From the sequence record PP180001: a stretch of DNA of 53,791 nt; one strand, 5' to 3'. The position numbers and the translations under genes are program-made. Positions 2,238 through 18,296 of this stretch are shown here, one piece after another (position 1 is the first letter of the stretch; each line of letters opens with the position of its first letter). The notes beneath the pieces are model-generated. The model did not search any database. It was not told where the DNA came from and was given only the letters and a program-made list of their open reading frames with translations. Source of the stretch: Escherichia phage mEp010.

Positions 2238-2414
2238 TTACGCCACAGTTACATTGTCAACTTTGATAAAATATTCAGGGTGGTTTTCTATTTCGTGCTT
2301 AAAGTGCGCATGACACAATCGCCAATCACGCGCCTGATTGTGAAAATAGTAAACGTATTCGCCATCAATCTTGTATAAAATACCTGTAGGTTTAGCCATG
2401 TAGTAACGAACCAT
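2238..2414 (-). CDS. Small hypothetical protein (58 aa)
   Basis: ATG overlaps the ninB stop (TAATG); fills the gap between ninB and the 220-aa gene; below ORF-track size cut-off. Confidence 0.3.
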   Translation of the reverse strand: MVRYYMAKPTGILYKIDGEYVYYFHNQARDWRLCHAHFKHEIENHPEYFIKVDNVTVA

Positions 2415-2845
2415 TATTGCCCCCAGCGTTTTATAAACTCATCGTTTAACTTCGTATCGCCTGACCACTGAACACCATGTTCAGCGCCGAACGAGTAGAT
2501 CAGTTCGATTAATTCGCTAAATTCTGCTTTACTCATCCGGCTGGTTGACGTGCCCAGCACAACAAATCCTGATTTATCCAGGTTAGGGACAACGCCATAT
2601 TTCTTAAGCCCGGCAGTGAATACCGCTTTCCAGTCTTCCGGCGACAGCTTTTTGCCGTACCAATTAACCTGATCGCTAATGTCGGTTAACAGCGCCCAAA
2701 GCAACGCATTTTGACTTAGCGAGCGGGTTTTCTCCTGGATGGTAATTATCAGCGGGCTTTTGCTATCAGGCTGGATCTCTCTTATCTGCCTGATAGCATT
2801 TTCTTTCACGGCGTCGTTTACTATCTCAAATCTAATTTGCCTCAT
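2414..2845 (-). CDS. ninB: NinB (Orf-family) recombination mediator
   Basis: 143 aa; strong resemblance to lambda NinB (IITIQEK.RSL.QN..LWA.L.D.S.QV.W.G..L..E.WK.VFTA). Confidence 0.85.
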   Translation of the reverse strand: MRQIRFEIVNDAVKENAIRQIREIQPDSKSPLIITIQEKTRSLSQNALLWALLTDISDQVNWYGKKLSPEDWKAVFTAGLKKYGVVPNLDKSGFVVLGTSTSRMSKAEFSELIELIYSFGAEHGVQWSGDTKLNDEFIKRWGQ

Positions 2846-3039
2846 AATACACCGTTGCTATTTTTCCATTGTGCCCGTGCGTACATAATCGCCTGCAAAG
2901 AAATTAGCCGCGAGCTTGTCATGAAAGCGCCTTTTAAATATTTCATGTCAACCGTGACAGGTTTATCAGGATCATCGCCGCGCATGTATTCCGCAATTGT
3001 GCTTAAGTCTTCCACGGTCAAATCTAATTCCCTATTCAT
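2842..3039 (-). CDS. Hypothetical protein (65 aa)
   Basis: Track ORF, 4-nt overlap with ninB start; operon packing. Confidence 0.5.
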   Translation of the reverse strand: MNRELDLTVEDLSTIAEYMRGDDPDKPVTVDMKYLKGAFMTSSRLISLQAIMYARAQWKNSNGVL

Positions 3040-3048
3040 GGTCGCCCC

Positions 3049-3255
3049 TTACACAATACGCATTGTGTTTCGTAATTCACCGCGCAACGCCTGCAAAGCG
3101 TAACGAATAGGCACAAAAGCCCGGTTAAATTTTACGTGCCTGTACTTGCGCATTAGTGGAGGCGTATAAACCATCGCGCCGCAAGAATTGCATGGAAATT
3201 TAAAGTGTGATTCGTCAATGAATGTTTCAACTGAATAAAAAATTACCCGTCTCAT
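3049..3255 (-). CDS. Hypothetical protein (68 aa, Cys-containing)
   Basis: Track ORF; start overlaps stop of upstream gene. Confidence 0.5.
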   Translation of the reverse strand: MRRVIFYSVETFIDESHFKFPCNSCGAMVYTPPLMRKYRHVKFNRAFVPIRYALQALRGELRNTMRIV

Positions 3256-3845
3256 AATTCCAACCCCGTTTCACCGTTAAGTTTTTCGATCTCAAATACT
3301 GGCTTATCAGGCAGAAGGCCGTTGTTTTTCCGGTATTCGCTCAGGCGACTATCAAAGTCAAACGCCAGATCATTAGCGTGACCGAATCGCCCAGGTTTAA
3401 ACAGCGAGTAAAAGTTAACCCCGTGCCTATTTGGATCAACGCAAAGCGTTTCATCAATCACCATTAAACGCAGAGTACGAGAAAGATAATTCCACGGTAT
3501 TCCCGTTTCAGCGCTAATGTCGCGCATACGCTTTTTAACGCTGTAGCCACCAAATAACGACGCGACACGCTCACGACGTTCAGCATATAACTGTTTAATA
3601 CGATAACCCAGCAGACGGCGGCGGCGTCCAAAACATGTATACACGCGCTCGACGATACCGTTTTTTATTAAGTGTTTAATTGTCTCAGGCAGTAACCCGT
3701 CTTTGTCATATCCAGCCAATAACCCCGTTTTATTGCGTAACTGGTGCATTGTTGCGATGCCATCAAGTTCAAGGATATTGATAACTTTTGTTTCAAGTTC
3801 AGCGCTCATTGCTTTTAGCCTCATTAAAAACGCGATAACAGCCAC
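3252..3845 (-). CDS. Hypothetical protein (197 aa) downstream of helicase
   Basis: Track ORF in leftward replication operon; no motif recognised. Confidence 0.55.
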   Translation of the reverse strand: MAVIAFLMRLKAMSAELETKVINILELDGIATMHQLRNKTGLLAGYDKDGLLPETIKHLIKNGIVERVYTCFGRRRRLLGYRIKQLYAERRERVASLFGGYSVKKRMRDISAETGIPWNYLSRTLRLMVIDETLCVDPNRHGVNFYSLFKPGRFGHANDLAFDFDSRLSEYRKNNGLLPDKPVFEIEKLNGETGLEL

Positions 3846-3888
3846 CAGAAAGCGGTAAACTTTCCGGTAAGCCGTTTGCTCATATTGA

Positions 3889-5304
3889 TTAAAAAGATGT
3901 GTTATTCTGATTGTTTCGTTGGTTAAAACGGCTTGTGCGATGATTCATTGACTGAATACACGCTGCGGCTGCGCGCGCCTGGTCGCATGGCAAGATATTA
4001 CCGTTGTCATCAAACCGCTGGTAAACAGTTCCAGACTTACCATGACGGTTTTTTGACACAATGATTTCCATGTATTCGCGGGCAACAGACTGCTCGTCGT
4101 AATACCCATCGCGGTAAACCATGATTATTCTGTCGGCATCTTGCTCAAGGTTGCCGGAATCACGCAGATCAGAATTATTAGGGCGCTTGTTTGGTCGTTC
4201 CTCAACTCGTCGTGATAATTGCGCTAGCGCTAACACTGGAACGCGCAATTCTTTTGCCATCATCTTCAACGACCATGACAATTGCCCAACGGCGAGATCA
4301 TGACGTTCTGCCTTAGCCAGCTTCATCAACCCTATGTAGTCAATCATTACCATACCCAGGTTGGGATGTTCCTGTTTCATCCGTTCCGTGGTGGCGCGTA
4401 TTTCCTCAACCGTTAACTGCGACGCGTCAACGATCCACACATCAAGATTAGCAAGTGCGCTCATACCCTGTCCGACATGCGCCCAACCCTCATCATCAAG
4501 TTTTACCGGATTGCGCAGGCAGTCAGTTGATAAATTACCAGCGCCAGCAATGGCCCGCTCAGTCATCTGATCGAGTGACATTTCAAGCGTGAAGAGCAAA
4601 ACGCCAACCCGCTGTTCTTTACTGCCAGGGTAAGGGCGTTCAGCGGCTGCGCGGGCAATTGCCAGCGCCAACGCAGATTTACCAGACCCAGGGCGTCCGG
4701 CGAGAAGTACCAAATCAGTAGCGTTAATGCCGCCCAACATTTCGTCGAGTGGTTCTATACCTGTTTTGATGTTGTCAGAATTGACACCGCATTCCATGCG
4801 CTTGCTTAAAACATCCGTATATTCCTGTACCGCATCGCGCAACAGAACCGGAATGATCTTATCTTTCGTTACCTTTAATTTTGAATACCGGGAATCAAAA
4901 TCTTTCATCGTCTCTTTGACGACCTCAAGCGTCCCCGTTTCCAGTTTGTAGCGCATATCGTCGATGAGTTCCAACATCTGCCGCCGCTGGTGCTCTTCAC
5001 GTAGTAGCTGTGCGTATCCCTTCAGGTTGGCAGCAGACGGGCACGATCGCGCCGTTTGCATTAGCGGTACGAAATTTTCATTACCAATCTCATCACCTAC
5101 CAGCAATGCATCGATGAGGTTCCTGTTTCTTGCTTGCGCCCGGATAATTTCAAAAGCCCGCTTATACAGCGGAATAGTGAACACTTCAGGATCAAGCGTA
5201 GCGAGAACATCTTGCGCGTTAGGAGTAAGGCCGCCCAACAGCAGCCCACCGATAACTGACGCCTCACGTTCCTGCCGTAGTGAGTTTATTTGCTCAGTTA
5301 CCAT
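3889..5304 (-). CDS. Replicative DNA helicase, DnaB family
   Basis: 471 aa; Walker A GRPGSGKSALALAIA, Walker B VMIDYIGLM, DnaB N-terminal domain. Confidence 0.9.
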   Translation of the reverse strand: MVTEQINSLRQEREASVIGGLLLGGLTPNAQDVLATLDPEVFTIPLYKRAFEIIRAQARNRNLIDALLVGDEIGNENFVPLMQTARSCPSAANLKGYAQLLREEHQRRQMLELIDDMRYKLETGTLEVVKETMKDFDSRYSKLKVTKDKIIPVLLRDAVQEYTDVLSKRMECGVNSDNIKTGIEPLDEMLGGINATDLVLLAGRPGSGKSALALAIARAAAERPYPGSKEQRVGVLLFTLEMSLDQMTERAIAGAGNLSTDCLRNPVKLDDEGWAHVGQGMSALANLDVWIVDASQLTVEEIRATTERMKQEHPNLGMVMIDYIGLMKLAKAERHDLAVGQLSWSLKMMAKELRVPVLALAQLSRRVEERPNKRPNNSDLRDSGNLEQDADRIIMVYRDGYYDEQSVAREYMEIIVSKNRHGKSGTVYQRFDDNGNILPCDQARAAAACIQSMNHRTSRFNQRNNQNNTSF

Positions 5305-5894
5305 TATGTCATTACCTCATGTTTACAAAATGTATTTTCGATTGGTAAAGAAATGCCGTGATTACTATGAAAGTTATATATTCTTTCTGCTTCTTTTCTT
5401 GCTTTCACGGCATCATCAAACGAATCACCGTAATAAACGTATATTGTTTTCTTTTTACCATCAGATCCCCTTATACCTATTTGCGCCCGCCATTTATGGG
5501 TTTTCTTGTTCCATGTAACGCCAACGCACCCACTAGTGTTATTTGATGGCATTATTTTATTTCTGTTATTTTCCTGCCTTGTTACCATTCTTAAATTTTC
5601 GATCCTATCGTCACCAGGGATATGGTTTATGTGGTCTATTTCCATTCCATCAGGAATAGGGCCGTTAAACATTTCCCAAATAATGCGGTGACGCCATGTA
5701 CAACAGATACCATTAACGCAGATAGTCCAATAGCCGCGATGATGCTTACTTCCAGCCACGCTACCTGCTTTTATTTTGTTATTTGCGCGGTTACAAGACC
5801 AATATAGAACGCCGTTCTTATAGGTAAATAAATCATCCCACATCATGACATCCCACCATTTCAGGTCTATATACAAAGCGACCAATTTCGCCAT
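5304..5894 (-). CDS. HNH homing endonuclease (HNH plus AP2-like domain)
   Basis: 196 aa; DHINHIPGDDRIENL...NNRNK HNH motif, GYW..CVNG and SGCVGVTWNKKTHKWRAQI AP2-like repeats; wedged between replication genes, overlapping both neighbours. Confidence 0.8.
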   Translation of the reverse strand: MAKLVALYIDLKWWDVMMWDDLFTYKNGVLYWSCNRANNKIKAGSVAGSKHHRGYWTICVNGICCTWRHRIIWEMFNGPIPDGMEIDHINHIPGDDRIENLRMVTRQENNRNKIMPSNNTSGCVGVTWNKKTHKWRAQIGIRGSDGKKKTIYVYYGDSFDDAVKARKEAERIYNFHSNHGISLPIENTFCKHEVMT

Positions 5895-6963
5895 AATCAG
5901 GACTGTAAATTATAACCGCCGCGCAACGTTGCGATCGCCAGCCTCCATTAGTTGAATAAGCGTCTTTTCCCGCTAACGTGCCGTGGTGTTCAACTATGCC
6001 TATAGATGATTCTATTACTGATTTATGGTGCAAATGTCCGACATGGACGTAAACATATTTCGACTTGCCAAAGTCTTCCCGCCAGTCAGACACACAAGCA
6101 GACAATAAATTTTCAGGTTTTTTGATTGTGTGTCCGTGGTGGTAAGCAAGGAATGTTTTGCCGTACTGTGTGTGGTGGACGATGGCAGGGGACACATCAA
6201 CCGTCACGCGCGGTTCATCTTCGTAAAAAGCCGCCAGCGCCGCACGTAGCCAGATCATTCCTGACTGGTCGTGATTGCCTGATAACACTTGGATCTCGAC
6301 GTCTTTGTGGTTTAACAACATCTTTCCAACAGCCCGCCGGACCGAACGGATCGCCACATAAACAAGTTTTGCGTAGCGTGAATCGCAATCAAGTACGTGA
6401 TTGCTTGATGGCGTAACTGGCAACAGTCCGTCAGTGTGAAGAACATCCCCGCCGAGAAGCAATACGGCTTTTTCAGACATCGGAGCAGCGCCTACAGCGT
6501 AGTCAAAGAAGTCATTCAATACGCGCTCAGCGATCCCAGTGTCGTAGCTCTCGCCGCATTCAGCTTTGTGGGCAAGTGCCCCGATATGCAAATCAAATAC
6601 CGGATAAAGGGCCAGGCTTTTTTGAAAATCAATTTCAGGCACTGGCACTGCCTCCGCGCGTGGTATTTCTTCCGTGAATGCGTCGCGGGCAGCTTCCATT
6701 AGCCTTTCCATTTCATCGCGGTCACGGGCTGTTTTAATCCAGCGCATGACCGTATTCCCAGCCTTATCGACAAGAACAGATTCACCAGTAACGCCAAAAC
6801 CCGGCGCGCGGCGCGTTGATAATAAACCGCGTTTCGCCAGCTTTGCGCCCAGCCGCTCGACGTTGCGTTTTGACATGCCATATTTTTCAGCGATCTGTTT
6901 ATACGTCAGACCGTTGTTATATTCAGCGATCAATTGCTCATCGCTGATTTTTCTTTGCGACAT
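5833..6963 (-). CDS. N-terminal HTH fused to calcineurin-like metallophosphoesterase
   Basis: 376 aa; HTH (LTYKQIAEKYGMSKRNVERL) then phosphoesterase motifs DLHIG, GGDVLHTDG, GNHD, GHLHH. Confidence 0.65.
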   Translation of the reverse strand: MSQRKISDEQLIAEYNNGLTYKQIAEKYGMSKRNVERLGAKLAKRGLLSTRRAPGFGVTGESVLVDKAGNTVMRWIKTARDRDEMERLMEAARDAFTEEIPRAEAVPVPEIDFQKSLALYPVFDLHIGALAHKAECGESYDTGIAERVLNDFFDYAVGAAPMSEKAVLLLGGDVLHTDGLLPVTPSSNHVLDCDSRYAKLVYVAIRSVRRAVGKMLLNHKDVEIQVLSGNHDQSGMIWLRAALAAFYEDEPRVTVDVSPAIVHHTQYGKTFLAYHHGHTIKKPENLLSACVSDWREDFGKSKYVYVHVGHLHHKSVIESSIGIVEHHGTLAGKDAYSTNGGWRSQRCAAVIIYSPDYGEIGRFVYRPEMVGCHDVG

Positions 6964-7124
6964 AATGTTAATTCCTCCGGTTTACAGAATGTATATTTAT
7001 TTTCCGTAAAACGCGCTACAACGCAAAAATCCACCGCGTAACCCACTTGTAAGGGTGCAGTGTCTTTTTTGCGCCAGAAGCGCAATCAGGTGGCTAATTT
7101 TTGATTTACAGACTGGTAGGTAGG

Positions 7125-7226
7125 TTATGGATTGACAAGAAGGAACAAACCGCCGAACAAAACCACGTTAACAGCGATTGCAGCGGCGATGGCAAAAGCC
7201 AGGGCGAAAACGTGTTTACCGTCCAT
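7125..7226 (-). CDS. Possible 33-aa hydrophobic micropeptide (MDGKHVFALAFAIAAAIAVNVVLFGGLFLLVNP)
   Basis: Small ORF with AGAGG-type SD in the 400-bp gap between replication genes; speculative. Confidence 0.2.
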   Translation of the reverse strand: MDGKHVFALAFAIAAAIAVNVVLFGGLFLLVNP

Positions 7227-7360
7227 TTTCGAAATCCTCTCTGTAACGCTCTATAACGAGCTAATCGCAAAAAGGTAAGCAAGTGTAGCACCACATGCGA
7301 TTTATCTCGCTGGCGAGCTTGTTTTGCGGGTTATTTTGGGTTTTTGTGGATCGTGGTTGG

Positions 7361-8368
7361 TCAAAGAGCGCCACATCGTGTATCACGTAGCGTTTTTGGT
7401 TTAAGCAGGAAATCAAGTGTCGCTATGAAGCCATTGCCGAAGTAAAAATCTGAAGCCGTGTTTTTGAACGTTTCAAAGTAGGCGACAAAGCCGTTGATGC
7501 TTTTGTCTTTCAGGTAGTCAGTGAACGCATAAATCTTGCGTTCAAGATCCCGATCCAGTTCGGCAGGTGGCAACAGGCCATCAAACGTGCTGTTAAATGC
7601 CTCCACTACGTCGGCAGCGTTTGCAGTGGCTGACAGTTTGCGCCATTTTTCAGCATCAGCCAGATACCCATCAAATTTAGTTACCCGGCAAATGTTTATA
7701 GGCTTAGGTGTTCCACCACGGCTACGCCATTGTGTTAAAGCCCACTCAATCACTAACGTGATCTCACCCTCCGTATACGCTTTACGTGTTTTTGTTTCTG
7801 TCAGTAGTTCTACGAATGGCTTAGCATCACGACATTTGCATCCTGCCTTGTCGTTGTAGAAGGCCAGGCAACGCAATGCCGCCAGGTTAACCTCCCGATC
7901 TTCTTCGCTGATAGACCGGTCTTTTTCCAATACACGGAGTGTATTGTTTTTAATGTTCTCTTTACTGGTTATATATGACTGGTTAGGGTGACTCTGTGAC
8001 ACTACCCCCGGTGACTCTGTGTCACTACCCCGGTGACTCTGTGTCACTACCCCCGGTGTCACTGTGACACTACCATGCAATGACGGAAGGACTATTACAT
8101 AGAAATTACTAGTTTGCTCTTTTCCTCCGATTAAATATCTTGGTTGTTTAATCAACAACCCTTTTTCACAAAGTGAGTCTACAGCCCTCATAGCTGTTCT
8201 TTTGCTGATCTCACACTCCTTTGCTATGTGATGGTAAGAAGGATAACACTCTCCGTTATCATTAGCGTTATCAGCTAACTTCAACAGCACCAGTTTGTGC
8301 ATTGGGTCGCCGACCTCAGTATGGAAGACCTCTACCATTAGCCGCATACTCATAAGCATTAACCTCAT
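7361..8368 (-). CDS. Replication initiator (O-like; winged-HTH N-domain, origin iterons inside gene)
   Basis: 335 aa; iteron array embedded in the coding sequence as in lambda O; adjacent to helicase. Confidence 0.7.
   Translation of the reverse strand: MRLMLMSMRLMVEVFHTEVGDPMHKLVLLKLADNANDNGECYPSYHHIAKECEISKRTAMRAVDSLCEKGLLIKQPRYLIGGKEQTSNFYVIVLPSLHGSVTVTPGVVTQSHRGSDTESPGVVSQSHPNQSYITSKENIKNNTLRVLEKDRSISEEDREVNLAALRCLAFYNDKAGCKCRDAKPFVELLTETKTRKAYTEGEITLVIEWALTQWRSRGGTPKPINICRVTKFDGYLADAEKWRKLSATANAADVVEAFNSTFDGLLPPAELDRDLERKIYAFTDYLKDKSINGFVAYFETFKNTASDFYFGNGFIATLDFLLKPKTLRDTRCGAL
7986..8074. repeat. Origin iterons: four tandem ~22-bp repeats (GGTGACTCTGTGTCACTACCCC), each with a GTGAC-N5-GTCAC palindrome, flanked by an AT-rich stretch (7940-7985)
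   Basis: Seen directly; encodes the GVVTQSH-repeat linker of the initiator. Confidence 0.75.
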
Positions 8369-8374
8369 GACGAA

Positions 8375-8620
8375 CTAAAACATTAACTGATAAACGCAGA
8401 AGAAACCTGGCAGCTGGCTGATTAGGCCGCTTCTTTTCAGTTGATGCAGTGCAGAGATAGTGTCGCGTAACGAAATTTCGCACATTTCCGCGATCTCTTC
8501 TGGCGTTACTTCGCTTTTGCCGTTGCATCCAGCCTTTGTTGCCAGTGCAATTAAGATGAGTTTTTGCGCCGGATCATTGTTATTCAGGCGAATATCAAAA
8601 GCCTTGCGCACGTAATACAT
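8375..8620 (-). CDS. Winged-HTH regulatory protein at the Cro position (paralogous to initiator N-domain)
   Basis: 81 aa; first gene of leftward operon, divergent from repressor; HTH segment EEIAEMCEISLRDTISALHQLKRSGLI parallels the initiator N-terminus. Confidence 0.55.
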   Translation of the reverse strand: MYYVRKAFDIRLNNNDPAQKLILIALATKAGCNGKSEVTPEEIAEMCEISLRDTISALHQLKRSGLISQLPGFFCVYQLMF

Positions 8621-8727
8621 ATTCTTTCTCCTATGATTAGAGTGAACGCGCGGGCGGGCATCCCATTAGCATTAGATAGCAGTGACTGACCGCTCAACAG
8701 ATCCCGCCGTTGCGTGATATTTGTTTT

Positions 8728-8761
8728 TCGCTTCGCAGCGACACCAGATTTTTAAAGAGCT
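8728..8761 (-). promoter_or_regulatory. nutR-like site (boxA AGCTCTTTA plus boxB-like hairpin) on the leftward transcript
   Basis: Minus strand reads GCTCTTTAAAAATCTGGT then hairpin TCGC-TGCGAA-GCGA; same 15-mer as the nutL-like site. Confidence 0.5.
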
Positions 8762-8769
8762 TAAGGAAT

Positions 8770-8923
8770 TGGCCTTTTGTGCTTTCCTTTATCTTTTTTC
8801 TTGCATCATTGCAACTATGGCCTTACCTTGTCTGCAAGTTTACATAATGGCTTTAACAGGTCAAGGCTTGAAAAACACGTTTTGTGACTTGCATCAAACT
8901 TTTTTAGGTTATAGGGTAGCGAC
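8770..8923. promoter_or_regulatory. Divergent immunity-region promoter/operator segment
   Basis: Leftward TTGACC-16-TAAACT (8837-8864, minus); repressor ATG only ~10 nt after a TTATAG -10-like hexamer (leaderless-type); repeated CTTGCATCA half-sites at 8800-8808 and 8888-8896. Confidence 0.4.
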
Positions 8924-9571
8924 ATGAAAACAAAATGGTATGACTTAGCAAAGCAGCTCATGCGGGCGCAGGGCATGAGTCAGGATTCATTGGCTGATCT
9001 CATGGGGATAACCAAAGGTGGCCTTTCGCACTGGCTGAACGGTCGCCGTGAGCCAAATCTTGAAGATATTGCGCGGATCATGCGGGCGCTTGGGCGTCGG
9101 CAGTTTACTGTCACACATGACGGGATGGTTATCGATGATTCTGTTTCTAACACGTTACCGGGAGCGCCACCGCGTGATTTAGGCAGTTACCCGGTTGTTG
9201 ACTGGAAGGATGTAGCAAACAATATGGAAGGCACATGCCGATCAACATTGCCACACATTACTACTAGCGTTATTTGTTCGGATGATAGTTATTGGCTGGT
9301 TGCTAAAGGTGAATCAATGAACGCACCGCAGGGGTTAAGCATCCCGGCGGGGACTATGATACTCGTTGACCCGCACGCGCCAGCTATTGACGGAAAACTT
9401 GTTATAGCACAACTGGAGGAAGGGCAGATACCTACGTTTAAACAGTTGATTATTGATGGAGGCCGAAAACTTTTGCGTTCACTGAATCCGTTGTATCCGC
9501 CGATCCCTATGAATCCAGAATCAAAAATCATAGGCGTGGTGGTTGATGCGAAGATCGTAAACCTGCCATAA
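8924..9571 (+). CDS. cI: CI/C2-type lysogeny repressor (HTH plus S24 LexA-like peptidase domain)
   Basis: 215 aa; C-terminal domain resembles P22 C2/lambda CI (GESMNAPQGLSIPAGTMILVDP, KLVIAQLEEGQIPTFKQL, KIIGVVVDAKIVNLP). Confidence 0.9.
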   Translation: MKTKWYDLAKQLMRAQGMSQDSLADLMGITKGGLSHWLNGRREPNLEDIARIMRALGRRQFTVTHDGMVIDDSVSNTLPGAPPRDLGSYPVVDWKDVANNMEGTCRSTLPHITTSVICSDDSYWLVAKGESMNAPQGLSIPAGTMILVDPHAPAIDGKLVIAQLEEGQIPTFKQLIIDGGRKLLRSLNPLYPPIPMNPESKIIGVVVDAKIVNLP

Positions 9572-9577
9572 ACAATA

Positions 9578-9601
9578 GCCGCCGGATGGCGGCTTTTCTT
9601 T
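9578..9601 (+). terminator. Rho-independent terminator after repressor gene
   Basis: GCCGCC-GGAT-GGCGGC hairpin followed by TTTTCTTT. Confidence 0.7.
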
Positions 9602-9695
9602 GTCTGAAAAAACACCAAAACGTAAACAGAAAACGCTATTTATTGTTTAAATATCAATAGCATATAAAATATTTTAAAAAAGTATACAAAATGGA

Positions 9696-9724
9696 TTGAC
9701 TTGGTGTTTTACGGGGCGTATATT
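9696..9724 (+). promoter_or_regulatory. Rightward early promoter (PL-equivalent): TTGACT-17 bp-TATATT
   Basis: Near-consensus sigma-70 hexamers with 17-bp spacer; recurrent motif GTATACAAAATGG abuts the -35. Confidence 0.65.
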
Positions 9725-9978
9725 GCGAATCAAAGGAAGGGCGTAGGTAACAAAAGCAGCTTCCTGGCACTTTAAAAATCAGGCTTAACACCTTGTCAAC
9801 CGTGGAGTAACTCCCCAATGGGGGACCGAAAGCGGCACTGATAACAAGGCGCATGGGGTGTTTAAAGCGTTACATCCCCCACGAAACCGCACGCAGGGCG
9901 ACGAGTCAGCTTGCTTGGAGTGAGCAAGGTCACGCCGGGAACGGCGATGATTGCGGGATTAGTTGAAAGATGTTAAGC

Positions 9979-10016
9979 CGCTCATTAAAAATCTGGTCAG
10001 CCGCTGGAAGTGCGGC
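9979..10016 (+). promoter_or_regulatory. nutL-like site (boxA CGCTCATTA plus boxB-like hairpin GCCGC-TGGAAGT-GCGGC)
   Basis: 58 nt upstream of the N-like gene; shares GCTC(A/T)TTAAAAATCTGGT with the nutR-like site. Confidence 0.55.
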
Positions 10017-10513: not shown

Positions 10514-11155
10514 GTGAAAACAGAGTTACACAAAAAGCTGTGGACGATTCAACAAACGTTGAACGCGCCGAAAAATCAGCGTAATAATTTCGGTGGGTAC
10601 AATTACAGGTCGGCGGAGGATATTTTAGAGGCGGTTAAGCCACTGCTTCAAAATATCACGCTGACTGTTAGCGATGAAATCGTCCTGATCGGCAATCGCT
10701 ATTATGTGAAGGCCACAGCTACGCTAAGCGACGGCGAAGATGAAATTGCGGTAACTGCTTACGCCAGGGAAGAAGAAAGCAAGAAGGGAATGGACGCAAG
10801 CCAGTTAACTGGCGCGACATCAAGTTATGCGCGTAAATACGCGTTGAACGGATTGTTCTGTATTGATGATGCGCGAGATCCTGATACTGACGCATACGCC
10901 AAGCAGACAGGCCAGCAGCCTCGCCAACAGAAAAATCCACCAAAACAACAACCACAGCCGCCGAAAGCGCCGCCAAATCCTGATGAAGTATTAGCACGTT
11001 TCTGTGATGCGGCAGCGAAAGCGCCGGACGCTAATAAGTTGCGCGAGATATTCGGGAAGTGCTGGAAGCTACTTCCTAAAGATTCAGAGCAGCAACAGAA
11101 AGCAAAAGACTGTTATGACATTCGCTTAAAAGAGCTTAAAGGGGAGATCAGTTAA
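10514..11155 (+). CDS. erf: Erf single-strand annealing protein
   Basis: 213 aa, GTG start after AAGGAG; close match to remembered P22 Erf (LNAPKNQ..F..Y.YRS.EDILE.VKPLL, DEIVLIG.RYYVKATAT, QLTGATSSYARKY). Confidence 0.9.
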   Translation: MKTELHKKLWTIQQTLNAPKNQRNNFGGYNYRSAEDILEAVKPLLQNITLTVSDEIVLIGNRYYVKATATLSDGEDEIAVTAYAREEESKKGMDASQLTGATSSYARKYALNGLFCIDDARDPDTDAYAKQTGQQPRQQKNPPKQQPQPPKAPPNPDEVLARFCDAAAKAPDANKLREIFGKCWKLLPKDSEQQQKAKDCYDIRLKELKGEIS

Positions 11156-11574
11156 TGAGCTTAAATTCAATCACGCTGGGCGGTAATATCGGGAATGATA
11201 TGGAGGTTCGCTACACGCAAAACGGTAAAGCTATTGGTAGCTTTCCGTTGGCTGTAACGAATGGCTACGGTGATAATAAACGGACTATGTGGATCACTTG
11301 CCTGGTATTTGGCGAGCGTGCGGAAAAATTAGCGCCACATATCCGTAAAGGTGGAAAAATAGTGGTAAGCGGTCGCCTGGATGTTCGGCAATATGACCGG
11401 AACGACGGCACGAAGGGGACTGCGGTAGAAGTGGCAGTCAATGAGTTTGAGTTCATGGCTGTTAACCAGCAAGGTCAGCAGCAAGGTCAGCAGCATAAAG
11501 CGCAGCCGCAGCAGAATCATAGCGGTGGATATAAAGAACCACCAATGGATTTCGATGACTCGATTCCGTTTTAA
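11155..11574 (+). CDS. ssb: Single-stranded DNA-binding protein
   Basis: 139 aa; OB-fold N-terminus, Gln/Gly-rich linker, acidic tail DFDDSIPF; ATGA-coupled to erf. Confidence 0.9.
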   Translation: MSLNSITLGGNIGNDMEVRYTQNGKAIGSFPLAVTNGYGDNKRTMWITCLVFGERAEKLAPHIRKGGKIVVSGRLDVRQYDRNDGTKGTAVEVAVNEFEFMAVNQQGQQQGQQHKAQPQQNHSGGYKEPPMDFDDSIPF

Positions 11575-11589
11575 ATCAATAGGTTAGCG

Positions 11590-11868
11590 ATGGTTGATTA
11601 TTTAAAAACGCCACCGCCACCGCGAACAAAAGAGCAAGTTCTCAAAGAAGCCCGTGATCATATCGATCATGGGCTTTTTTTATGCGGAACGGCAGCGGAA
11701 CGGATGGCAAAAAGATTTAGTGACCTGTACGCAAAACAAATATGGTTCGACAACTGGCAGGCAAGTTTTTACCCACTGCAAAGAAAACCGGATATGCATT
11801 GGCCTGAATATGTCGATCCACGTATGCGCAAATATCGCGGGCGTATGGGCCAGGTTATTAACGATTAA
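11590..11868 (+). CDS. Hypothetical protein (92 aa)
   Basis: Track ORF in rightward early operon. Confidence 0.5.
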   Translation: MVDYLKTPPPPRTKEQVLKEARDHIDHGLFLCGTAAERMAKRFSDLYAKQIWFDNWQASFYPLQRKPDMHWPEYVDPRMRKYRGRMGQVIND

Positions 11869-17499: not shown

Positions 17500-17676
17500 A
17501 TGCCTTTTGATAATTACCAATGGCATGACGACTATGAACGAGAAAGCGTCATGCGTGCAATGTGCAATGTATGCAGCACGAAGAAAGGAGACTGCAACGA
17601 GTGCAACGAATGTTTAGATCATTGGCTAAGGGCCGGACACGCCGAAAGGCTGAACGAAACAGAGAATCAAAAATAA
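17500..17676 (+). CDS. Small Cys-rich protein (58 aa; CNVC..CNECNEC)
   Basis: AAGGAG SD 7 nt upstream; below ORF-track cut-off; immediately upstream of ninG. Confidence 0.4.
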   Translation: MPFDNYQWHDDYERESVMRAMCNVCSTKKGDCNECNECLDHWLRAGHAERLNETENQK

Positions 17677-17690
17677 TCGGGGTGGTTTTT

Positions 17691-18296
17691 ATGAAAAACC
17701 CTAAAAAACCCATAAAACGCCGTTGCAAATGCTGCGGCGTTTTTTTTGAGCCTAAATATCACAATCAAACGTGGTGCAGTGATGAATGTCTGGAAGAACT
17801 GAAGTTTGACCAGCTATGCCGCGACCGTGAAAAGGCTATGAAGGCTATGGAGCGGAAGAAACGCCGTGATAGCCAGAGGGAAGAACGCAACCGGAAGCGG
17901 AAGCAGTTACACCCGCGAAGTTACTGGATTCACCAGGCGCAAACTGTATTTAACGCATACATACGCGAACGTGATGCAGGACAACCGTGTATATCTTGCG
18001 GGACTTACTACGGTGATCAATGCGGTTGGGATGCTGGGCATTACAGGACAGTAGCGGCGGCTGGGCATCTTCGATTCAACGAGGATAACGTGCATCGTCA
18101 ATGCAAACAATGCAATCAGAGACTGGACGGTAACATATCTGCTTATCGCCCAGCGCTGATTAGAAAAATTGGCCTGGCTAGGGTGGAAGCGCTGGAGAAC
18201 AACAACGAAATTCACAAATGGACTATCGAAGAATGTAAGGAGATCGCAAAAGTTTATCAGGCTAAGTTAAACGCCTTAAGGAGAAAGGCGGCATGA
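17691..18296 (+). CDS. ninG: NinG / Rap recombination protein
   Basis: Close match to lambda NinG (RRCK..C...F.P, PRSYWI.QAQ..NA.IRERD...PCISCGT, WDAGHYRT.AAA..LRFNE.N.H.QC..CN, WTIEECK); Met44 of track ORF 17562-18296. Confidence 0.9.
   Translation: MKNPKKPIKRRCKCCGVFFEPKYHNQTWCSDECLEELKFDQLCRDREKAMKAMERKKRRDSQREERNRKRKQLHPRSYWIHQAQTVFNAYIRERDAGQPCISCGTYYGDQCGWDAGHYRTVAAAGHLRFNEDNVHRQCKQCNQRLDGNISAYRPALIRKIGLARVEALENNNEIHKWTIEECKEIAKVYQAKLNALRRKAA

Follow-up and report, generated by a model that had tools for sequence, protein, structure and literature searches.

A helix-turn-helix metallophosphoesterase of family PHROG 704, a probable DNA nuclease, in the replication module of the temperate phage mEp010

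Phage T5 produces a pre-early protein, A1, that is both necessary and sufficient for host DNA degradation, is toxic and triggers retron Eco2. A1 is a predicted metallophosphoesterase (MPE) with an N-terminal DNA-binding domain, and its features resemble those of double-strand-break repair nucleases and of polymerase proofreading subunits. Retron Eco2 is triggered by DenB as well as by A1, and the system is inactive on Drexlerviridae. A further MPE, Bas01_0050 of Escherichia phage Bas1 (AugustePiccard, MZ501051), appears in a 2026 preprint on the DRT7/UG10 reverse transcriptases (bioRxiv 10.64898/2026.02.16.706125): in every sequenced Bas1 escaper of DRT7, missense or frameshift changes were found in Bas01_0050, which the authors term a putative nucleic-acid-targeting phosphoesterase; the protein is toxic to E. 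coli when expressed on its own, which precluded co-expression with DRT7; and lambda escapes DRT7 through loss of gam, a gene of DNA metabolism. Here we analyse a relative of Bas01_0050 in Escherichia phage mEp010 (PP180001; the window, that is, the whole stretch of 53,791 nucleotides), namely the 376-residue protein mEp010_12, encoded at 5833-6963 on the minus strand.

We find that mEp010_12 is a typical member of an already catalogued phage protein family, PHROG 704. A first-pass annotation of the window, made by a model from the sequence, had proposed the fusion of an N-terminal helix-turn-helix (HTH) with a phosphoesterase. This fusion is real, with the catalytic motifs seen in an 83-sequence alignment and the HTH recovered by a family profile searched against the PDB, but it is not new. 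mEp010_12 matches phrog_704 ('DNA repair exonuclease') with an E-value of 1.4e-141, residues 4-370 aligning to positions 2-389 of the 390-position profile. The match takes in the N-terminal HTH region, and an HTH followed by an MPE domain is the standard architecture of PHROG 704 rather than the unusual fused form that had been supposed; homologues occur in 2045 of 50,697 phage records (tblastn). The name 'DNA repair exonuclease' is an annotation, not a tested function. We note that the first-pass annotation had named, as a result that would speak against it, membership in a DNA repair exonuclease family without an HTH: the family does bear that name, but it includes the HTH, and the N-terminus of mEp010_12 is a DNA-binding fold, as described below.

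The commonest organism names among the homologues are Escherichia (559), Klebsiella (468), Salmonella (373), Vibrio (254) and Campylobacter (60), and the taxa among the matches listed include Drexlerviridae, Webervirus, Jerseyvirus and Dhillonvirus as well as Proteus, Ruegeria, Pseudoalteromonas and Flavobacterium phages. Their annotations vary from 'hypothetical protein' and 'putative phosphoesterase' to 'DNA repair exonuclease', 'nuclease' and even 'oxidoreductase'. The family is found in T1-like phages and in numerous further siphophages. A fold search of BFVD added uncharacterised proteins of similar fold from phages of Lactobacillus, Bacillus, Cellulophaga and Caulobacter.

The open reading frame (ORF) has a good ribosome-binding site (GGAGG, 10 nt 5' of the ATG), and its product is the GenBank 'hypothetical protein mEp010_12' (100% identity). 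The closest homologue in the phage collection is that of mEp021 (97% identical), which together with mEp010 belongs to the Nus-dependent, non-lambdoid mEp-immI group; the genome paper on this group holds no discussion of the MPE gene (PMC11893012). The gene is under strong purifying selection, with a median ratio of nonsynonymous to synonymous substitution rates (dN/dS) of 0.078 against 35 alleles (dS 0.39 to 1.05). Among 5426 complete E. coli genomes, 35 carry it, in every case on the chromosome and annotated 'hypothetical protein'.

The binuclear MPE domain spans residues 117-365 (5869-6615, minus strand). We aligned mEp010_12 with 82 diverse relatives (30-57% identity), drawn from 4554 cluster representatives (50% identity) matching at E<=1e-3. 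Analysis of this family alignment reveals that all five metal-ligand motifs of the calcineurin-like MPE superfamily are intact in mEp010_12, and the domain has the MPE fold. In motif I (D124-x-H126) both residues are invariant across the 83 sequences. Motif II begins with the invariant G172-D173, followed by the nearly invariant H176 and D178, and its literal sequence, GDVLHTD, is of the 'GDxxH' form, which also occurs in Pyrococcus Mre11. Motif III (G229-N230-H231-D232) has N230 and H231 invariant and D232 nearly so; motif IV is the invariant H276, inside HHGH; and motif V (G309-H310-x-H312) has G309 and H312 invariant and H310 nearly so. T184 is also invariant. Of the motifs reported in the first-pass annotation, DxH, GNHD and GHxH are therefore present, whereas GD..D is absent, its place being taken by GDVLHTD. 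An AlphaFold2 model built with the family alignment (predicted local distance difference test 93.8; predicted template modelling score 0.76) lays out three helices (8-16, 21-27 and 32-44), a lower-confidence linker, a hairpin and helix (56-97) and the MPE domain (117-365).

The N-terminal tri-helical HTH covers residues 8-44 (6832-6942, minus strand; helices 8-16, 21-27/28 and 32-44). Searched alone against Pfam and NCBIfam, mEp010_12 gave only sub-threshold HTH matches. The N-terminal family profile, searched against the PDB, matches GerE (E 2.9e-4), sigma-H region 4 (4e-4) and RhlR (1.2e-3), and also NarL, ComA and FixJ, and the Pfam matches of family members include Sigma70_r4_2 (1.5e-9), GerE (2.4e-8), HTH_1, HTH_8 and others. 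The helices thus match solved DNA-binding HTH domains of the LuxR/GerE and sigma-70 region 4 class by profile and by structure and, judged from these comparisons, the N-terminal region of mEp010_12 is a genuine DNA-binding fold, an HTH of the LuxR/sigma-70-region-4 type. We note that the HTH is the least conserved segment of PHROG 704 proteins, that its subtype differs between members, and that some members of about 310-320 residues appear to be without it. A conserved beta-hairpin and helix (residues 56-97; 6673-6798, minus strand; consensus 'KGxSTLxDxxGxxxxxWVKT'), in which G69 and W75 are nearly invariant, joins the HTH to the catalytic domain.

With regard to the class of enzyme, a single-sequence PDB search with mEp010_12 gave nothing useful. 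The best match of the catalytic-domain family profile in the PDB is Thermotoga maritima Mre11/SbcD, with an E-value (0.058) that is not significant by itself; a 'Nuclease MPE' is also listed, and there are no small-molecule phosphodiesterases among the family-profile matches listed. Two independent comparisons, one of profiles and one of folds, rank DNA nucleases first (PolD DP1, SbcD and Mre11), and protein phosphatases rank far below them. Nothing here points to the hydrolase of nucleotide signals or phosphoproteins that the first-pass annotation had suggested.

On balance and with moderate confidence, we consider mEp010_12 to be a DNA nuclease that is tethered by its HTH, works as a stand-alone enzyme, belongs structurally to the Mre11/SbcD/DP1 class and has an accessory early role in DNA metabolism or host takeover. 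In such an enzyme, an N-terminal HTH of the LuxR/sigma-region-4 type would be linked flexibly to a two-metal phosphodiesterase. The HTH would keep the enzyme on DNA, while the MPE domain would cut the phosphodiester bonds of DNA, whether from ends or in the manner of an endonuclease; additionally or alternatively, the HTH may repress expression of its own gene. Judging from the operon structure, the gene would be transcribed in an early leftward operon with the initiator and DnaB, and because of this the protein would act in lytic DNA metabolism. Its role would be accessory and non-essential, such as the processing of DNA ends or of replication and recombination intermediates, or an attack on host DNA that parallels T5 A1.

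Comparison with Bas01_0050 bears on this proposal. The Bas1 protein, also of 376 residues, is 55% identical to mEp010_12 over its full length (E 3e-154), and the two share PHROG 704, their length, the catalytic motifs and a related HNH gene directly downstream. They differ in their setting: the Bas1 gene, as in Drexlerviridae, comes after a helicase, a methylase and small genes and before the lysis cassette, whereas mEp010_12 belongs to a temperate phage and lies in a replication module between the initiator and DnaB. Because of the escaper mutations and the toxicity, Bas01_0050 would be dispensable for plaque formation and its activity would harm the cell. We infer that DRT7 detects the phage through Bas01_0050 or through its products. 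Bas01_0050 is therefore a DRT7 sensitivity determinant and not a shown counter-defence. mEp010_12 may still have the counter-defence function proposed in the first-pass annotation, but for DRT7 the sole experimental link points the other way, since mutations in the Bas1 gene help the phage.

Similarly to PHROG 704 proteins, T5 A1 carries an N-terminal DNA-binding region and a C-terminal MPE domain. Like Bas01_0050, it is toxic if expressed alone, and mutants of each escape a defence built on a reverse transcriptase, namely retron Eco2 in the case of A1 and DRT7 in that of Bas01_0050. However, A1 is 556 residues long and essential, whereas Bas01_0050 tolerates frameshifts, and in contrast to mEp010_12, A1 has a motif II that is not of the GD type and falls in PHROG 1745 instead of PHROG 704. 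An hhalign comparison of the two families gave a probability of 20.7% (E 1.1e-3) over 55 columns around motif III, a comparison that used a single sequence gave 15%, and A1 was not among the top 50 of the BFVD fold search. Because homology beyond the superfamily level stayed weak, we treat A1 as an analogue only. Relatives of A1 (45-48% identity, about 530 residues) carry N-terminal Pfam HTH domains, namely HTH_23, HTH_38, HTH_7 and CENP-B_N (precomputed for P0343, P0345-P0349, P0373 and P0385), and the combination of an HTH with an MPE nuclease therefore recurs in at least two phage families.

Mre11/SbcD, the best catalytic-domain profile match in the PDB, resembles mEp010_12 in its GDxxH-type motif II and its GNHD motif III. 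Unlike Mre11/SbcD, mEp010_12 has an N-terminal HTH and no C-terminal capping domain, since the chain extends just 64 residues beyond motif V. A Rad50/SbcC partner was not found among the window ORFs of at least 200 residues that were profiled (the early region and ten more), a search that left out the remaining large ORFs of the late, virion-gene part, and none was found in the annotated contexts of ten other phages. An SbcCD-type complex was rejected, as these ORFs and contexts supplied no partner ATPase. The archaeal PolD small subunit DP1, a 3'-5' proofreading exonuclease, differs in that mEp010_12 has no DP2 partner and no polymerase gene in its operon, and we see no evidence of DP1's other domains in mEp010_12. 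The calcineurin-like defence effectors Metis and PUA-Cal-HAD were leads from the literature but are different proteins, and a phage Tn-seq preprint contained no data on T1-like phages.

Several of these results weigh against a DNA nuclease of the Mre11/SbcD/DP1 class, including the E-value of the T. maritima match, the weak alignment with the A1 family, and the absence of both a capping domain and a Rad50/SbcC partner. On the same side stand the Pfam results: mEp010_12 has no Metallophos match (PF00149 or PF12850) even at E 0.1, and the relatives match only weakly (PF00149 in 19 of 83 and PF12850 in 17 of 83, best E 3.9e-5). PHROG 704 is a divergent MPE branch uncaptured by Pfam-A. The literature searched held no biochemistry for any PHROG 704 member, and the toxicity of Bas01_0050 and its role in DRT7 escape also fit a non-nuclease activity. 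Since gene context varies widely between phage groups, the link to replication may be incidental. Finally, the margins that separate nuclease from non-nuclease neighbours in the comparisons are small, and because of this a DNA substrate, and with it the biological role of mEp010_12, is what we infer and not what we observe. The case for DNA is strengthened by the fused DNA-binding domain, by the Bas1 genetics and by neighbours in DNA metabolism, which are the initiator and DnaB here and a helicase, a VRR-NUC protein and a DNA methylase in T1-like phages.

The genomic setting of the gene is fixed in one lineage and variable elsewhere. The mEp-like loci from IMG/VR were collected by single-protein searches that reach close relatives only. 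About 40 of them share the order cI, HTH, initiator, a variable segment of 0.4-1.5 kb, MPE and DnaB, and the MPE gene lies directly upstream of dnaB in 43/43 close DnaB relatives (DnaB at least 92% identical), with a gap of 34 bp where the HNH gene is absent. Because these 43 loci are close relatives, their fixed MPE-dnaB linkage counts as one evolutionary observation. In T1-like phages, the MPE gene ends an operon with a helicase, a DNA methylase and small ORFs, right before the lysis cassette; in JK16 this operon also encodes the VRR-NUC protein. In Dhillonvirus, the gene sits between the endolysin and small terminase genes, and in Vibrio, Jerseyvirus, Proteus, Ruegeria and Pseudoalteromonas phages it closes small early-type units. 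The location between initiator and helicase, to which the first-pass annotation attached weight, thus holds as a fixed position next to dnaB in the mEp-like lineage, but adjacency to replication genes is specific to that lineage and absent in the other phage groups sampled. What is particular to the window is the capture of the MPE gene into the replication module of a temperate phage, together with an HNH insertion.

The MPE gene often comes last in an operon of small early genes, a typical place of host-takeover and anti-defence genes. This position would also suit a different enzyme, a hydrolase of small phosphodiesters such as Ap4A, cyclic (oligo)nucleotides or NAD-derived signals, which would weaken defence systems that signal through nucleotides; the HTH would then only autoregulate a toxic gene in the manner of Aca-type HTHs for anti-CRISPR. 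The viability of the Bas1 frameshift mutants and the genetic interaction of the gene with a defence system agree with this. We nevertheless regard it as unlikely. Nucleases come first in the profile and fold rankings, and the Bas1 mutations lead to escape from DRT7, which is the opposite of the expectation for a lost counter-defence gene; moreover, DRT7 is not known for nucleotide signalling. The PADLOC defence and anti-defence models gave no match apart from a chance-level one to Csa3 (E 0.047) on the HTH region, and a DNA substrate is the simpler explanation for a DNA-binding domain retained throughout the family.

We give slightly less credence to a dedicated replisome accessory, that is, a DP1-like 3'-5' exonuclease or a fork or flap processor that physically partners DnaB or the initiator and is recruited near the origin by its HTH. 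The predicted co-transcription with the initiator and the unbroken association with dnaB would suit such a factor. However, that association stems from a single close lineage, and outside it, among T1-like, Dhillonvirus, Jerseyvirus, Vibrio and marine phages, the gene does not adjoin replication genes. The Bas1 missense and frameshift mutants are viable, and the HNH insertion between the MPE gene and dnaB is tolerated without harm.

More doubtful again is the possibility that mEp010_12 is mainly a transcription factor, whose HTH acts on promoters or RNA polymerase, for example in early-to-late timing, and whose MPE domain is a regulatory or sensor module. The LuxR/GerE and sigma region 4 class of the HTH fits this, as do the report that T5 A1 affects pre-early transcription and the observation that the gene borders lysis or terminase genes in several virulent phages. 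Yet it is the catalytic residues that are invariant and the HTH that is least conserved, the N-terminal region appears to be missing from some family members of 310-320 residues, and an essential late-gene activator would not be expected to yield viable frameshift mutants. A Ser/Thr/Tyr protein phosphatase resembling NinI or lambda protein phosphatase and acting on host or phage phosphoproteins is highly improbable and was rejected: lambdoid phages do encode such a PPP enzyme, of the same superfamily fold and with metal-ligand motifs in common, but mEp010_12 lacks the PPP signatures GDxVDRG and GNHE (having GDVLHTD and GNHD instead) and is therefore not a relative of it, in line with the fold ranking and with the lack of any PPP match in Pfam or NCBIfam.

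Between the MPE gene and dnaB, the window carries a homing-type endonuclease gene with HNH_3 and AP2 domains (5304-5846, minus strand; Pfam HNH_3 7.8e-22), the start of which overlaps the 3' end of the MPE gene by 14 nt. It is present at this place in only five mEp-like loci (the window, mEp021, L012, L013 and L048) and is not part of the conserved unit. The HNH gene directly 3' of Bas01_0050 is 38% identical to that of the window, and related HNH genes also flank the MPE gene downstream in a Vibrio phage and directly upstream in several T1-like IMG/VR contigs (loci with related HNH genes: L001, L012, L013, L048, L011:39208-39693 and L004:7208-7717). The MPE gene appears to be targeted by homing repeatedly. 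At its 3' end (5833-5880, minus strand), HNH-less alleles encode 372 residues and end in ...GRFVYYPEYSIL, and HNH-bearing alleles end in ...GRFVYRPEMVGCHDVG (376 residues) or ...GRFVYRPGMSNYGME, the latter resembling the C-terminus of T1-like proteins (...YRPGM in Bas1). As far as sequence can tell, these allele ends fit co-conversion of the flanks in the course of HNH homing, with exchange with T1-like phages as a further possibility.

The minus-strand gene run that holds mEp010_12 comprises, in order, an 81-residue HTH protein, the initiator, a 33-codon ORF, the MPE gene, the HNH gene and dnaB, followed by NinB and others. The replication initiator (HTH_36, O-like and DnaD-like; 7361-8368, minus strand) lies upstream in the same leftward operon as the MPE gene, and the DnaB-type replicative helicase (3889-5304, minus strand; Pfam DnaB_C 1.5e-75) is the conserved downstream neighbour. 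The 400-bp gap that separates the initiator from the MPE gene contains the strongly hydrophobic 33-codon ORF (MDGKHVFALAFAIAAAIAVNVVLFGGLFLLVNP; 7125-7226, minus strand), which has an AGAGGA ribosome-binding site and is 76-100% conserved across many mEp-like loci; in mEp021 it is unannotated. The gap as a whole (6964-7360) is a variable cargo site, 0.4 kb long here and 1-1.9 kb elsewhere (e.g., L001:5104-7000). In mEp021 it holds a gene for a 496-residue 'zinc-ribbon domain' protein, of which about ten loci have a shorter version (69-75% identical).

A promoter-like site (TTGACC-16-TAAACT; 8837-8864, minus strand), divergent from the cI gene and recognised by consensus match only, is a candidate start of the operon holding the MPE gene. 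The region scanned for promoters and terminators (3000-10000) holds fewer promoter-like sites than its shuffles, with counts overall at or under the shuffled expectation and nothing convincing internally around the MPE gene. No operator-like inverted repeats were found in the intergenic region 5' of the MPE gene. A perfect 8-nt inverted repeat (TCAGCGAT / ATCGCTGA, 9-nt spacer) lies at 6923-6947, within MPE codons 6-14, and may well be due to chance.

The first gene of the leftward operon (8375-8620, minus strand) encodes the 81-residue protein, which matches the HTH_36, O-like and DnaD_N initiator N-terminus and not Cro-type repressors, and appears to duplicate, as a free-standing protein, the DNA-binding domain of the initiator. 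In many relatives its identity is down to about 35%, against about 90% for its neighbours. On the 3' side of dnaB, a 197-residue protein (3252-3845, minus strand) with only a weak MarR-like PHROG match occurs among the mEp-like loci in two very different allelic forms, with identities of about 84-97% and about 31-41%, respectively. The window also encodes a P22-like recombination set (10514-11868, plus strand; 2414-2845, minus strand; 17562-18296, plus strand) made up of an Erf-type recombinase, SSB, the anti-RecBCD protein Abc2 (phrog_656, E 1e-31), NinB/Orf and NinG/Rap. Since Abc2 is present, an anti-RecBCD function already exists in mEp010 apart from the MPE protein.

Taken further, PHROG 704 might form a second, widespread class of host-attack nucleases in which a DNA-binding domain is joined to an MPE domain, analogous to A1, with HTHs that set the target, products that are sensed by DRT7, and one enzyme captured beside DnaB; as a joint proposition we put this forward as speculation and expect it rather to fail than to hold. 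If it were true, (I) the divergent HTHs would give each phage its own target or a means of self-versus-host discrimination, (II) the DNA products of PHROG 704 enzymes would be what reverse-transcriptase defences such as DRT7 sense, and (III) capture into the mEp-type replication module would have coupled the enzyme to DnaB, probably by HNH-assisted transfer from T1-like phages. PHROG 704 is large and includes many therapeutic-candidate T1-like, Klebsiella and Salmonella phages, and the temperate mEp phages offer, through prophage induction, a genetically tractable setting. Identification of the PHROG 704 substrate would name a gene that is mostly annotated 'hypothetical' and could explain what DRT7 senses.

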